In this document: positions 12,504-62,938 of the stretch, one piece after another
Layout of the letters: every line of letters begins with the position of its first letter
How positions within the stretch are numbered: position 1 is the stretch's first letter
Origin: Deltaproteobacteria bacterium
GTDB taxonomy: Bacteria; Myxococcota; Kuafuiibacteriia; Kuafuiibacteriales; Kuafuiibacteriaceae
DNA length: 64,000 nucleotides
Direction of reading: 5' to 3'
Assembly (NCBI GenBank): GCA_040218735.1
Contig: JAVJQW010000041.1
Location: 320,001-384,000, forward strand
Translations under genes and position numbers: made by a program
Notes under the pieces: model-generated
What the model saw: only the letters and a program-made list of their open reading frames with translations
Told to the model about the DNA's origin: nothing
Database searches by the model: none

Positions 12504-15209
12504 TCAATACTCGCCGCTCGACAGCCGCTGCGCGACCTTCTTCGCGTACCCGGCCACGTCCGCCATCGTGCTCATCGAGAGCGCCTCGTTGGCGTAGACC
12601 GTGTTGCTCTGGCCCTGGAGGTGCGCTGCGCGCTCGAAGAACTTCTCGAGGCGCATCGAGTCCCCGCTGACGTGGGGGAAGAAGTCCCAGCGGCGGCTGT
12701 CCACGAGCTCCACGTTCGTCGCGCCGAGCTGCTTCATGTCGCCGTCGATCTTCTTCATCACTTCCGCGTCGGACATCCCCTCGGGCGCGAAGAGGTGGAA
12801 CACGAAGACGTCGTCGTCCGCGTGGCGCTTGATCCACGCCATCGGGTGACCCATCCGTTCGAGGTCCATGTTCTCCGCGAGGTAGCCGACCTCGGACTTG
12901 CCGTCCGCGATACCGCCGACGCGACACGCGAACGTGGAGTACGGCATGTGCTGGACCTGGCCGAAGAGATCGCGCTCTTCGTACGACGCATCGAGCATCG
13001 ACAGCGCGGCCTTCGGATCACACGCGACGACGAGCCGATCGAACTCCATCGCCGAGTCCTGCCCGGCGACCTTCACCTTCACCTTGTCGCCGCTGCGATC
13101 CACATCGACGACCTCCTGGCCGGTGCGGACGTCCATCCCTTCGGCGAGCCCGCGCCAGATGGGACGCGTGCCGTCTTCCCACATCAGTCGCGGCTTCCGC
13201 GCGCCGGCGACCGCGCGAAGGTCGAGCATCCGGTAGCCGTAGATCGCGGGTGTGGTCTTGGGATCGCCGTAGCCGTACCCGGTGAGGTACGTGTCCATGG
13301 TCCGCTGGAACTCGTTCAGGCCCTGGCGGCGGGTCACGACCGGGAAGGGATCGGCCAACGACTCGTCCGGGACTTCGATGCCCGAGAGGCCCCCCTGCAG
13401 CGTGTTGCCGATTGCGTAGCGCACCGCTTCGAGCATCAGTCGCGCCTGTTCGCCACGGCTGCGTGGCTGCGCCGGGCCGCCGGCGCCGAGGTCGTAGTTC
13501 ACTTCGTCGGGGAACTGGACCGTCTCGACGCCGACCTCGTCCGCGAACGCGACGACGTCGCGGTACTTGCCGCTGACCCCCATCGTCGCGCCGAGGTCGT
13601 GGGGCCTTCCTTCGATCGAAACCGTGTGGCTCTTGCCGCCGACCTCGTCGTCGCGTTCGAGCACGACGACGTTTGTGTGCCCGAGCTGCTTCAGCTCATG
13701 CGCGACGGTGAGGCCCGACGGTCCGCCGCCGAGCACGCAGATTCGTGCGTCCTTCGGTAGCGCGCCCTTCTCGACCTTCGGTGTGGCGAGCACCTCGTTG
13801 ACGTGCTGACGCTTTGCCTCGAGCTGATCGATCTTGGCTTTGGTGGTCGCTTCCTCGGCCTCGGTCGCGCGCCAGCCGTCGAGCTGCTTGCGCGTAGGCA
13901 GCTCGCGGATCGGTTCGATCCCGTCGGTCGCGCCGCCCTTCACGTAGACGACCTGGTCGAGCTGGAGCTCTTCGGCTCGGAAGCCGCCGGCCACCGAGCG
14001 GAGATAGAAGTCCCACATTCGCTTGAAGCGATCGGAGTAGTCGCCGGCGAGGTCGGGCCAGGCGTCGGTGAAGCCGTCGTGCCAGTCGAGCAGCGTTTGG
14101 TCGTAGTGCGGGGTGATGCGGTGGACGTCCGCGGGCCCGCCGAACGACGTCGACGCCGCCTTGTCGACCTGGTTGCGCGAGGGCGCGACACCGTCGTGGA
14201 AGATGTACTTGCTGAACCACGTGTTGCAGTTGACGACGTCCTTGTTCGACGCGATCGCCTGCAGCGCGAAGCGACCGCCGTCCTTCAGGACGGCGCTGGC
14301 GGATTCGAAGTACGGGTGCAGGTTCTTTTGGCCGACCGCTTCGATCATCTCGATCGAGACCACGTGATCGAAAGTGCCCGCTTCGAACTTCAACGGCAGG
14401 TCGCGGTAGTCACAATGCTCGAAGGTTACGCCGTCGACGTCCTCCGACAGCGCACGCGCCGCCTTGAGCTGCTCACCGGAGATTGTGATCCCGGTGACCT
14501 CGGCGCCGTAGTTCTTCGCCGCGAAGCGCGCGAACCCGCCGAAGCCGCACCCGATGTCGAGGACCTTGTCGCCGGGCTTCAGGTCGAGCTTGCGGCAGAG
14601 CAGATCGTACTTGGCGTTCTGCGCGTCCTGGAGATCGAAACCTTCGCCGTAGACGCCGCTGGTGTACGTCATCGTGGCGTCGAGCATCCGCCGGTACAGC
14701 TCGTTGCCCGCGTCGTAGTGCTCCTTCGCGACCTTCGGCGAGCGCGTCCGCGTCTGGCGGTTGAGGACCGAGTCCCTGAGATTGCGGAACGTCTGGGTGG
14801 CCCACGCGCGGGTCAACAGGCCGGGCGTCTCGAGGAGCGCCGGCACCGCGAGCAGCTCCTTCTTCGCGTCCGTTGCCATCAGGCGCGCGCACATCTCGTC
14901 GACCGCGGCGCAGTCCCACAGGCCGTCCATGTACGTCTCGCCGAGCTGGAGGTCGGGGTCCGAGAGCACGCGGGTGTAGAAGCGCTCGTCGTGGACCTGG
15001 ATGTCCCACGGGCGGCTCCCGCCGATCTCGATGTCGGCGACGGCGAGGACGCGCTCGACGTTGGCCTTGGCGCGTTCGGTCCGTGTCCCCGAGAACGGGC
15101 CGCTCGGTCCCAGCGGCGTCTGGAGCGCGGGGCTCTTCGCGGGCGCATCGCCGGTCGCGGCCGTCTTCAGGGGGCTGACGGAGCCTGTGCGAACCTTGAA
15201 ATCGGACAC
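12504..15209 (-). CDS. Fusion of cyclopropane fatty acid synthase (N-terminal) and FAD-dependent PAI-like fatty-acid isomerase/oxidoreductase (C-terminal)
   Basis: Cfa motifs 'RPWDIQVHDERFY', 'LGETYMDG', 'HYDAGNELY', VLDIGCGFG. C-terminal domain has GGGPSG, 'LERDDEVGGKSHT', 'LGATMGV', 'WDFFPHV', 'LQGQSNTVY'. Confidence 0.88.
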   Translation of the reverse strand: MSDFKVRTGSVSPLKTAATGDAPAKSPALQTPLGPSGPFSGTRTERAKANVERVLAVADIEIGGSRPWDIQVHDERFYTRVLSDPDLQLGETYMDGLWDCAAVDEMCARLMATDAKKELLAVPALLETPGLLTRAWATQTFRNLRDSVLNRQTRTRSPKVAKEHYDAGNELYRRMLDATMTYTSGVYGEGFDLQDAQNAKYDLLCRKLDLKPGDKVLDIGCGFGGFARFAAKNYGAEVTGITISGEQLKAARALSEDVDGVTFEHCDYRDLPLKFEAGTFDHVVSIEMIEAVGQKNLHPYFESASAVLKDGGRFALQAIASNKDVVNCNTWFSKYIFHDGVAPSRNQVDKAASTSFGGPADVHRITPHYDQTLLDWHDGFTDAWPDLAGDYSDRFKRMWDFYLRSVAGGFRAEELQLDQVVYVKGGATDGIEPIRELPTRKQLDGWRATEAEEATTKAKIDQLEAKRQHVNEVLATPKVEKGALPKDARICVLGGGPSGLTVAHELKQLGHTNVVVLERDDEVGGKSHTVSIEGRPHDLGATMGVSGKYRDVVAFADEVGVETVQFPDEVNYDLGAGGPAQPRSRGEQARLMLEAVRYAIGNTLQGGLSGIEVPDESLADPFPVVTRRQGLNEFQRTMDTYLTGYGYGDPKTTPAIYGYRMLDLRAVAGARKPRLMWEDGTRPIWRGLAEGMDVRTGQEVVDVDRSGDKVKVKVAGQDSAMEFDRLVVACDPKAALSMLDASYEERDLFGQVQHMPYSTFACRVGGIADGKSEVGYLAENMDLERMGHPMAWIKRHADDDVFVFHLFAPEGMSDAEVMKKIDGDMKQLGATNVELVDSRRWDFFPHVSGDSMRLEKFFERAAHLQGQSNTVYANEALSMSTMADVAGYAKKVAQRLSSGEY

Positions 15210-15215
15210 GCGCCC

Positions 15216-15243
15216 TTATCGGCGGCTACCCCGGTTCGGGTGC
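15216..15243 (-). promoter_or_regulatory. sigma28/FliA-like promoter upstream of the CFA-isomerase fusion
   Basis: Minus strand reads GCACC-N15-GCCGATAA, a perfect sigma28 -10 element, 6 nt before the GTG start. Confidence 0.6.
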
Positions 15244-15357
15244 TCCGATCGTATGCTGAAGGTACACATGTCCCAGGTCAGTAGGCCGTCACGTGGCGGG
15301 CGTTGCCGTCCGCGTCGACGAAGCACGTGCCTCCCGTGCACGCCGAGGTCGCGTCTG

Positions 15358-15909
15358 CAGGAGAAGGAGGTCGCGATCGACACCCTCGCGGCGCGGCAGC
15401 AGCTCGGGAGCGTCCTGTACTTCGCGGGCCGGTACGACGACGCGCGCGAGGCGACGCTCGCCGCGGTCGAAGGTTACCGGCGCGCGGGCCTGACGGACGT
15501 CGAGGCCAACGCCGACGCGCTCTCGACGCTCGGGATGATCGAGACTCGCCTCGCGCACAACGAGGCGGCGATGGCGCGGCTCACGGAGGCGCGGGCCATC
15601 CATGAGCGGCTGGGCAACCCGGACACGCTCGAGGCGCTCCGGGTGCTGTCGCGGCTCGCGGTCGTCTACACGAACATGGAGCGCTACGAGGAGGCCGAGC
15701 CGATGTACCTCGACCTCATCGAGCGCGGGAAGGCGGCGCTCGGTGAAGATCCCCCCGAGGTCGCGCTCGCGGTTTCCAACCTCGCCGCGCAGTACGACCG
15801 GACCGGTCGGCCGAAGGAGGCGCACGCGTTGATGAAGGAGGCGCTCGCGATTCAGTCGCCGTCGACACCGACCACGCCGAGCGCGGCGTCGAACGTGACG
15901 TTGCCGTAG
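15358..15909 (+). pseudogene. Tetratricopeptide-repeat (TPR_10/12-like) gene fragment
   Basis: 'LAVVYTNMERYEEAEPMY', 'LGEDPPEVALAVSNLAAQY..TGR..EA'. No credible start, and similarity stops at ~15855 where it meets the SpvB-like gene. Confidence 0.6.
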
Positions 15910-62361: not shown

Positions 62362-62389
62362 CCGACGCGACTTTTTTCTCAGTATTGTC

Positions 62390-62416
62390 GCACCAAAACC
62401 CACCTTCGCCCGATAA
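62390..62416 (+). promoter_or_regulatory. sigma28/FliA-like promoter upstream of a hypothetical gene
   Basis: GCACC-N14-CCCGATAA, 9 nt before ATG 62426. Confidence 0.5.
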
Positions 62417-62425
62417 GTCCTGACG

Positions 62426-62938
62426 ATGGTCTCCATTCGCAGGTTCGATCCCGTTCCCGTCGGAACCACCCCCTTCGGCGGCGCGCCTATCGGCACGCAG
62501 GTCCGCGTCGGCTTCGGGGAGTTCCTGGCGAAGCCGCCGGCGGGCACGTTGTGGCACCGCCCCGGGCCGTCGGACGCGTTCACGCTCCACGCGGAGCAGC
62601 GCCACCCTGTCCTCGAGCCGGGGGATGTGGTCGGCGTGCGGCCCGGCGGGCTCATCCCGACGCCCCCGATGGGCTGCCACTACATCCGCATCTACGACGA
62701 CGTGCCGGAGGCCAAGAAGAGCCAGGCCGCCGAGATGTACAAGCTGATGGGGCCACAGCCGGCACCGATGTTCGCAGCGTTGCCGAAGCCGAGGCCGAGC
62801 CTGCAGGGTGCGGTCGCGCTGAGCTCGCGCATCCCGATGTTCCCACCCGCGGACGCCGGCAAGCGCTGGTTCCCGTTCCTCGTGGACGGTCGCAACCTCC
62901 AGAGCTTCCAGGCGGTCCCCGTCAGCGTCGCAGCGTGA
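62426..62938 (+). CDS. Hypothetical Pro-rich protein
   Basis: 170-aa ORF filling the gap between the porin and MscS genes, with GC3-biased codons. Confidence 0.65.
   Translation: MVSIRRFDPVPVGTTPFGGAPIGTQVRVGFGEFLAKPPAGTLWHRPGPSDAFTLHAEQRHPVLEPGDVVGVRPGGLIPTPPMGCHYIRIYDDVPEAKKSQAAEMYKLMGPQPAPMFAALPKPRPSLQGAVALSSRIPMFPPADAGKRWFPFLVDGRNLQSFQAVPVSVAA

Follow-up and report, generated by a model that had tools for sequence, protein, structure and literature searches.

Do three dispersed genes that share an unusual upstream motif within a single 64-kb stretch of a myxococcotal genome belong to one regulon, and, if so, which sigma factor reads the motif and where do the gene products act? The stretch analyzed here, referred to as the window, spans positions 320001-384000 of contig C58 in genome G000 of a Deltaproteobacteria bacterium placed in the Myxococcota (GenBank assembly GCA_040218735.1; 11.6 Mb, 68.8% G+C, 70 contigs, 96% complete). 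Three of its genes, encoding a fusion of a cyclopropane/methyl fatty-acyl synthase-like (CMAS) domain with an amine oxidase-like domain, a PLD-superfamily protein and a protein of 170 amino acids (aa), are preceded by GCACC or GCAAC and, downstream of this block, by CCGATAA, which is contained in GCCGATAA, the classical -10 consensus of sigma-28 promoters. An initial annotation made from the window alone proposed that these genes form a co-regulated set of exported effectors; the three sites that it listed, their orientation and their spacing of 6-30 nucleotides (nt) to the start codons are all exact in the sequence (Table 1). The reading that we favor, and consider on the whole probable, is that the genes belong to a regulon of about 85 promoters under a sigma-28 paralogue that is linked to a system for type III secretion (T3SS) and has a FlgM-like partner, and that the products are probable substrates of this T3SS. 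Direct observation covers the motif statistics, the degree to which the motif is conserved, the way in which it is linked to and co-occurs with the sigma gene, and the family to which that sigma factor belongs.

Genome-wide enrichment of the motif upstream of genes, on which the proposal of a shared promoter depended, proved to be extreme. Genes in G000 were delimited with a purpose-written simple codon-usage caller, which yields 8981 genes and divides the genome into 92.4% coding and 7.6% intergenic DNA; 150 of the 230 CCGATAA words fall in the intergenic fraction. With the strict pattern GCA[AC]C-N15/16-CCGATAA, 32 sites are found at N15 (30 intergenic) and 26 at N16 (25 intergenic), such that 55 of 58 sites are intergenic (binomial P = 5e-58), and every other spacing from N10 to N21 returns zero or one site. 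The reversed pattern has no site in G000, and three versions with scrambled blocks have 1, 5 and 0. One-letter variants of the motif show that the -35 block admits G or A at its first position and A or C at its fourth, and that any base can precede CGATAA; other single changes almost never occur in an intergenic context. The base that most commonly precedes CCGATAA is G. A relaxed pattern, [GA]CA[AC]C-N16/17-CGATAA, comprises 94 sites, 85 of them intergenic. A same-strand start codon lies within 200 nt of 84 of these 85 sites, compared to 37% of random intergenic positions, and within 31 nt of 56 of them, compared to 11%. The motif is a tight genome-wide promoter class with the consensus (C)[G/A]CA[A/C]C-N15/16-CCGATAA and about 85 predicted promoters in G000, and the existence of a sigma-28-family regulon is well supported and highly probable. 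Of the co-regulated set as first proposed, the shared sigma-28-type -10 with a non-canonical -35 stands; its size had to be revised, with about 85 promoters instead of three and a class that extends over the phylum. Canonical FliA promoters with this -10 are absent from G000, as the pattern TAAA-N14-17-CCGATAA, which carries the canonical -35 TAAA(GTTT), has no site in 11.6 Mb.

The distance between the -10 block and the start codon shows a hard floor at 6 nt and a peak at 6-11 nt, which accounts for 31 of 84 sites (4 sites at 6 nt, 7 at 7 nt, 5 at 8 nt, 6 at 9 nt, 1 at 10 nt and 8 at 11 nt). Three sites at a distance of -1 fall below this floor and probably reflect mis-called starts. Transcription from sigma-28 promoters begins some 7 nt past the -10 element, so that with such short distances many regulon genes would be leaderless; judged from this geometry, many motif-bearing genes seem to give rise to leaderless or near-leaderless mRNAs. 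Two further arrangements were observed. Tandem motif copies, 73 nt apart at C21:210560 and C21:210633, precede one gene of 107 aa, and some CCGATAA words (C8:99167/99187, C64:10276, C70:342007) sit in a palindromic TCCGATAATCGGA-like word without a -35 block, which may be a separate element, e.g. the binding site of a regulator.

For the window genes, the -10 block ends 6 nt before the GTG of the fusion gene, a leaderless geometry, 30 nt before the ATG of the PLD gene and 9 nt before the ATG of the 170-aa gene. Both enzymes carry a leader ahead of their catalytic domain, as the initial annotation had stated: the fusion protein has a polar N-terminus of about 150 aa followed by CMAS (155-419) and a flavin adenine dinucleotide (FAD) amine-oxidase-like domain (489-761), and in the PLD protein a long N-terminal region devoid of Pfam domains precedes PLDc_2, which is matched in two stretches (the best at 437-562). 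The 170-aa protein matches no Pfam or NCBIfam family. Comparisons were made with related Myxococcota metagenome-assembled genomes. In one of these, G001, the PLD orthologue is 80% identical and keeps the promoter with a diverged spacer, and the orthologue of the 170-aa protein is 79% identical and keeps the promoter at the same 9-nt distance. Since both orthologues align from residue 1, the concern that the leaders might arise from mis-called starts can be put aside where it is testable. In G006, the motif likewise precedes the gene for a weak homologue of the 170-aa protein, and also a stand-alone gene that is 72% identical to the oxidase half of the fusion. The full fusion has no orthologue in the five relatives searched, where only separate halves occur, and its N-terminal 150 aa are therefore without comparative support. 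A methylase joined to an FAD enzyme is reminiscent of pathways of fatty-acid methylation and desaturation. In the PLD protein, as read by eye, the second HKD motif, HAKSIEVD, is canonical, and the first, HDKLVRSK, has K in place of the expected aspartate, such that the first half-site may be atypical. Immediately upstream of promoter 1, two overlapping open reading frames (ORFs) compete, 15253..15909 (+), picked by the gene caller, and 15289..15996 (-); either way, this promoter is non-coding or at a gene end. The window also contains a region-4 sigma-like match in 4996-5577 (-) (G000:C58:325011-325232), a gene that probably encodes a sigma factor of the extracytoplasmic function (ECF) type and is unrelated to the motif finding.

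Which sigma factor reads the motif? The gene content that a sigma-28 regulon with type III export presupposes is present, as G000 encodes three FliA/WhiG-like sigma factors, on contigs C59, C6 and C45, as well as a flagellum and, besides it, a type III export apparatus of the non-flagellar kind. The C59 factor (C59:399958) is the flagellar one, scores 199 bits against the FliA_WhiG model, above its cut-off, and is encoded beside flhA in a full flagellar cluster. The C6 factor (C6:119462-120082) scores 176-188 bits, and its neighbors, as judged by N-terminal reading only, are neither flagellar nor T3SS genes. For the C45 factor (285 aa), FliA_WhiG is the best NCBIfam model, ahead of the SigB/F/G and ECF models, and the closest PDB chains are WhiG and FliA; it can therefore be classified as a divergent sigma-28-family factor and not as an ECF sigma. 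In agreement with this, its alignment spans the full length of the FliA/WhiG model, region 3 included, whereas ECF factors have regions 2 and 4 only. Region 4.2 of the C45-type sigma reads SKSW(T/A)SRLH(T/A)RAI. This sequence is conserved in G000 and in G027, a relative from a different family with a complete genome of 9 Mb, the two sigma proteins being 47% identical; the two other FliA-like factors have TQSR(I/V)SQI at this place. A different recognition helix in region 4.2 fits the changed -35 block.

The C45 sigma gene is the third member of a four-gene cassette, which consists of a TPR chaperone-like gene, a gene for a glutamine-rich (Q-rich) protein of 145 aa, the sigma gene and a 161-aa SctI-like gene. 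The TPR protein gives weak SctY/LcrH/CdsG and HrpB1_HrpK matches and the 161-aa protein a weak SctI match. This gene order is kept in every related locus examined. In G000, a copy of the motif overlaps the sigma stop codon and faces the SctI-like gene. Among 11 related loci analyzed with 6-kb flanks, nine carry a same-strand motif about 2 kb upstream of sigma, ahead of the operon, and six carry one at the sigma 3' end, an arrangement that an alternative sigma factor with autoregulation would be expected to show.

The distribution of the motif was surveyed in 151 genomes sampled across the Myxococcota, using the exact pattern GCAAC-N15/16-CCGATAA; related genomes are not independent, and the result is to be read as a pattern rather than a test. 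A C45-type sigma is present as one orthologue each in 90 of the 151 genomes. These 90 have a median of 5 exact sites, with at least 10 sites in 25 of them, compared to a median of 0 and at least 10 sites in only two of the 61 genomes that lack the sigma. Over all 151 genomes, 959 exact sites are found versus 61 for the reversed control, and single genomes range from none or a handful up to 70. The motif and the C45-type sigma co-occur over the Myxococcota. Four genomes of one genus (G046, G068, G080 and G096, about 6 Mb each) carry 46-70 exact sites per genome, a density far above that of G000, which suggests an expanded regulon in this lineage.

The sigma gene is further tied to type III secretion by its surroundings. 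In other Myxococcota, the cassette is embedded in the gene cluster of the non-flagellar T3SS. In G027, it forms one contiguous stretch of a complete type III secretion cluster together with SctJ, SctL, SctN, SctQ, SctR/S/T/U and SctV, of which SctJ, SctL, SctN and SctQ are confirmed by Pfam. The G027 cluster contains four motif sites, one before the gene that heads the sigma operon, one before a 156-aa gene and two before two of three tandem paralogues of 69-73 aa. These paralogues (locus L144, G027:C57, 4896-6016) match no Pfam family, are adjoined by the 156-aa gene and could be small secreted or filament-like substrates. In G000, the core export and basal-body genes of a non-flagellar T3SS are present as well, scattered over several contigs (Table 1). 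A Pfam search of G000 with YscJ_FliF returned flagellar FliF only and missed the SctJ-like gene. The motif precedes a 407-aa gene located between a TPR chaperone-like gene and sctV in G000, and in G003, G004 and G006, too, motifs occur upstream of sctV, at a distance of about 1.3 to 2.5 kb. In addition, FHIPEP (FlhA/SctV) genes are present in G000 in six full copies and one partial copy; because there are just two FliP genes, four or five of the FlhA/SctV paralogues are without an export gate alongside. Relatives have 2-6 FHIPEP copies.

Table 1. Coordinates of the motif sites, the genes behind them and genes of the sigma cassette and type III secretion apparatus; window positions for the first six rows, contig and position in G000 for the others.
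Feature	Location	Strand	Details
Promoter 1, GCACC-N15-GCCGATAA	15243..15216	-	-35 GCACC 15243..15239; -10 CCGATAA 15222..15216
CMAS + amine-oxidase fusion gene, 901 aa	12504..15209	-	Pfam domains; GTG start at 15209; behind promoter 1
Promoter 2, GCAAC-N15-GCCGATAA	44761..44788	+	-35 GCAAC 44761..44765; -10 CCGATAA 44782..44788
PLD-superfamily gene, 638 aa	44819..46735	+	PLDc_2; ATG start at 44819; behind promoter 2
Promoter 3, GCACC-N14-CCCGATAA	62390..62416	+	-35 GCACC 62390..62394; -10 CCGATAA 62410..62416
170-aa protein gene	62426..62938	+	ATG start at 62426; behind promoter 3
SctI-like gene and sigma gene	C45		sigma at 32958-33815
SctL/N/O	C23:287-290 kb		
SctQ/R/S/T	C23:303-308 kb		
SctU/V	C23:318-325 kb		
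SctJ-like gene	C9:183467-184063		tblastn with G027 SctJ, 33% identity
SctD-like gene	C41:428619-430817		FHA and Yop-YscD_cpl domains; regulon member
FlhA/SctV paralogue	C41:146084-148087		
FlhA/SctV paralogue	C70:143580-145622		
FlhA/SctV paralogue	C38:16372-18396		
FlhA/SctV paralogue	C9:330842-332836		
FlhA/SctV paralogue	C16:73260-74189		

The products of the regulon comprise 83 distinct proteins, 80 of which were scanned together with Pfam and the 20 largest individually (two window proteins, already scanned, were excluded). The 80 products contain 69 families in all, nearly all of them in single proteins; internal paralogues are almost lacking within the set, and half of the 20 largest products (10) have no Pfam family at all. 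Where domains are found, they begin far into the protein: CMAS at residue 155, DUF3626 at 183, Clostripain at 226, the glycosyltransferase domain GT5 at 229, PLDc_2 at 437, Ankyrin at 530 and PPDK_N at 836, so that catalytic or repeat domains are preceded by N-terminal regions of 150-800 aa without a Pfam domain. Calpain and esterase domains are also present. When residues 2-31 of the 83 products were compared to those of 8875 other predicted proteins, the products were enriched in Q (1.94-fold), N (1.81-fold) and P (1.40-fold) and depleted in L (0.74 of background) and C (0.27), and their combined S+T+P+N+Q content was higher (Mann-Whitney P = 4e-13). A hydrophobic N-terminal segment of signal-peptide grade occurs in nine of the 83 (11%) versus 38% of the rest, and a transmembrane-like segment in 2% versus 26%. 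The polar N-termini without a Sec signal that had been pointed out for the three window proteins are confirmed there and recur over the whole product set. A polar, non-cleaved N-terminus without a Sec signal is a trait of type III substrates, and these features, taken from sequence, fit such substrates without proving export. Based on the N-terminal composition, the lack of Sec and transmembrane segments, the domain architecture and the link of the sigma factor to the T3SS, we infer export of the products through this T3SS, and regard the matter as evenly balanced.

The alternative that survives best retains the same promoter class and the same sigma factor, with products that act inside the cell in a predation, stress or developmental response; here, the T3SS neighborhood of the sigma gene would be a trace of flagellar ancestry or would serve the control of a few apparatus genes. 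One regulon member of 528 aa is a sodium:solute symporter, i.e. a membrane protein, and the CMAS-oxidase fusion, the GT5 glycosyltransferase and the PPDK_N protein could act on the cell's own lipids or polymers. No class I chaperone family was detected in G000 either, but this Pfam search with CesT is uninformative, as it was silent in the control genomes as well. Against this alternative stand the strong depletion of signal peptides and transmembrane segments together with the polar-enriched N-termini, the predominance of orphans with domains behind long Pfam-free N-terminal regions, the occurrence of domains that are common in eukaryotic proteins (ankyrin repeats, calpain) and the position of the sigma cassette within a T3SS cluster with chaperone-like genes, so that an intracellular role of the set as a whole appears unlikely.

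Another alternative keeps the promoter statistics and replaces the reader. ECF promoters are characterized by AAC and CGA cores, and the motif could be an ECF promoter of the AAC-N17-CGA type, to which the hrp box is similar, or a site to which a transcription factor binds. With such cores about 17 nt apart, the motif does resemble ECF promoters, and many ECF-like sigma factors are detectable in G000 as weak region-4 matches. The conserved -10 block, CCGATAA, is however a full 7-mer that is barely tolerant of change, and the gene to which both physical linkage and phyletic distribution tie the motif encodes a sigma factor of the FliA/WhiG family that has regions 2, 3 and 4, a family assignment on which an ECF factor is rejected as the reader; for a transcription factor site, the motif lacks dyad symmetry and shows promoter-like distances to the start codons. 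Both variants are very improbable.

Reading by the flagellar FliA encoded on C59, with products that leave the cell through the flagellar export apparatus, would agree with the canonical FliA -10 block and with the full flagellar cluster of G000, whose FliA exceeds the curated cut-off, and there is precedent for the export of non-flagellar proteins by flagella (available text of PMC2764114). Yet the 220 nt upstream of both flagellin genes contain no motif, and no motif site lies within 40 kb of flagellar flhA/fliA. The phyletic pattern points in the same direction: neither a C45-type sigma nor a single motif site occurs in G005 and G017, which do have a flagellar-type FliA of more than 200 bits next to flhA, and their congener G018 has a C45-type sigma and 9 motif sites, with no third high-scoring FliA-like match. 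Taken together with the different region 4.2 helix of flagellar FliA, the motif-free flagellin upstream regions and this pattern lead to the rejection of flagellar FliA as the reader and make the alternative very improbable. The weakest explanation, chance resemblance of the three window sites, draws on the three CCGATAA words of the window, all at these promoters, which taken alone are not significant because 19 of 100 shuffles contain at least three, and is refuted by the genome-wide counts (58 strict sites against none reversed, 55 intergenic, two spacings only) and by the retention of the motif before orthologues, such that it can be practically dismissed. Most likely, the motif is read by a paralogue encoded among type III secretion genes and not by flagellar FliA, and the C45-type factor is likely to be this paralogue.

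A regulatory role can also be proposed for the Q-rich protein of the cassette, in which a disordered, Q-rich N-terminus is followed by a C-terminal part that is helical and conserved. Modeled in complex with residues 30-262 of the sigma factor, this protein reaches a score of 0.85, versus 0.00 for the best of three controls; among solved complexes, 58 of 80 attain this mark, and among mismatched pairs, 2 of 110 do. At least 76% of the contacts agree between runs, the Q-rich partner has a predicted local distance difference test (pLDDT) value of at least 69, and the modeled interface covers sigma regions 2, 3 and 4. This supports a FlgM-like mode of binding to sigma, as predicted by the model. 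Hints toward export of the Q-rich protein itself are its disordered Q-rich N-terminus and the adjacent TPR chaperone-like gene, and nothing further.

From these elements, a mechanism can be outlined, in which promoter activity, the assignment of the sigma factor to the motif, the anti-sigma role and export are what we infer. RNA polymerase carrying the divergent sigma-28 (FliA/WhiG-family) paralogue from the C45 cassette would read the motif. The Q-rich protein would act in a FlgM-like manner and hold the sigma factor until the secretion apparatus is active; it would then itself be exported by the active apparatus, thereby setting sigma free. Once free, the sigma factor would activate some genes of the apparatus and those of a large and varied set of soluble proteins, most of them orphans. 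The CMAS-oxidase fusion, the PLD and the 170-aa protein of the window would belong to this set, whose proteins would probably be substrates of that T3SS. A broader proposition is tentative and falls somewhat short of being probable: an early-branching, non-flagellar T3SS of the Myxococcota might have kept a flagellar-style sigma-28/FlgM checkpoint with a retuned -35 block, and GCAAC-N15/16-CCGATAA might label T3SS substrates phylum-wide, which would be the Myxococcus effectors called unknown, would include enzymes that modify lipids, among them the PLD and the fusion, and would in many cases be expressed from leaderless mRNAs.

Several points weigh against the proposed T3SS-linked regulon of exported proteins. 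On the side of the products, the symporter cannot be a T3SS substrate, nine of the 83 products have Sec-like N-termini, and the N-terminal composition is merely suggestive of export. As for the sigma factor, the C45 protein scores 159.3 bits and thus remains under the curated cut-off of 189.6 for FliA_WhiG (TIGR02479), and the C6 sigma is countered as the reader in G000 by one point only, the lack of a third high-scoring FliA-like match in G018. The sigma operon of G000 has no same-strand upstream motif; the upstream motif there is oppositely oriented and faces a gene of 216 aa, the orthologue of which is the first gene of the operon elsewhere. The Q-rich protein matches no Pfam (FlgM included) or NCBIfam family and, in a search against PDB chains, no match was obtained at E-values up to 1; moreover, the score of the complex model can reflect fold memory of FliA-FlgM. 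In the phylum survey, 11 of the 90 sigma-bearing genomes have no exact site, G039 has 18 exact sites and no C45-type orthologue at the thresholds used, carrying only a 168-bit FliA-like gene (C6:47377-47994) with no motif within 1.5 kb, and G001 has 34 sites with no sigma found in an assembly that is 75% complete. Regarding the apparatus, G000 has two secretin genes, neither of which is near T3SS genes, and no needle-family Pfam match was obtained in nine small regulon proteins or in the 55-aa ORF that heads the operon at locus L039, the needle family not having been searched in G000; this ORF is unsupported as the needle protein SctF. Finally, the gene coordinates rest on a crude in-house gene caller.

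If the proposed regulon is real, its promoter word yields a testable list of candidate T3SS effectors in any Myxococcota genome. Contact-dependent killing by myxobacteria requires an atypical T3SS, whose effectors are described as unknown in the available text of a 2023 review (PMC10433427), and the motif class may point to the long-sought secreted proteins of this system. It would also demonstrate a sigma-28/anti-sigma checkpoint on a non-flagellar T3SS, which fits the view, given in the available part of PMC3459982, of the myxobacterial T3SS lineage as an intermediate between flagellum and injectisome. In addition, it would provide a natural case of a sigma-28 paralogue in which the -10 specificity is retained and the -35 specificity is altered, so that flagellar and secretion regulons can share one cell without cross-talk. 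For annotation purposes, the motif independently supports the start codons of dozens of orphan genes, and the distances between motif and start suggest that leaderless expression is widespread in the regulon.

The closest known apparatus is the 'needleless' T3SS* of Myxococcus xanthus, which, according to the available texts, is used in contact-dependent predation (PMC3459982; PMC10196010; PMC10433427). It comprises SctD/J/I, SctQ, SctRSTUV, SctN/L and LcrH-like chaperones with no secretin in the cluster, and the G027 cluster has the same make-up. In contrast to M. xanthus, the organism of the window is also flagellated and its T3SS genes are scattered. The term 'sigma' has no occurrence in the available texts of PMC10433427, PMC10196010 and PMC3459982, and no publication that connects a sigma factor with the T3SS of myxobacteria was found in the available literature, PMC12075869 included, a statement on which subscription papers and supplements may bear.

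As for regulation, the system most similar to the one proposed here is the flagellar sigma-28 (FliA)/FlgM pair with its class III promoters TAAA-N15-GCCGATAA, which correspond to the present motif in the -10 block and in overall spacing. In both cases, a FliA/WhiG-family sigma is encoded beside type III export genes, and FlgM wraps sigma regions 2-4, as is predicted here for the small neighboring Q-rich protein. The differences are that the -35 block is GCAAC/GCACC and never TAAA, that the region 4.2 helix deviates, that the flagellin genes are outside the regulon, that the sigma gene lies in a non-flagellar T3SS cluster, that the Q-rich partner has no sequence match to FlgM and that the regulon consists of about 85 promoters of mostly orphan genes. 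Strict membership in the flagellar sigma-28 regulon fails on the -35 block, the flagellin targets and the curated score cut-off.

HrpL of plant-pathogenic Pseudomonas and Erwinia is an ECF sigma that recognizes the box GGAACC-N15/16-CCACNNA. It is a dedicated alternative sigma factor encoded with a T3SS, and its two-block promoter precedes dispersed effector genes, the same layout as proposed here; because of this layout, a promoter scan lists candidate effectors. Unlike HrpL, the sigma factor described here is a group-3 factor of the sigma-28 type with CCGATAA as its -10 block. A comparable coupling is known from Bordetella, where the ECF sigma BtrS is paired with the T3SS-secreted anti-sigma factor BtrA, as given in the available texts of PMC10732220 and PMC7498569. 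The export of an anti-sigma factor by the injectisome couples the transcription of effector genes to secretion, and the same logic is proposed for the Q-rich protein. The two cases differ in that BtrS is an ECF factor and the sigma here is of the sigma-28 family, and in that the Q-rich protein is only predicted to act as an anti-sigma factor and to be secreted.

In Chlamydia, sigma-28 controls late genes, and we know of no dedicated effector promoter class of this size there. The chlamydial regulon is small and developmental, in contrast to the one described here. Both cases have in common that a sigma-28-family factor operates outside flagellar biology and that the T3SS genes are dispersed over the genome, with the scattered T3SS loci of Chlamydia being described in the available part of PMC3459982.

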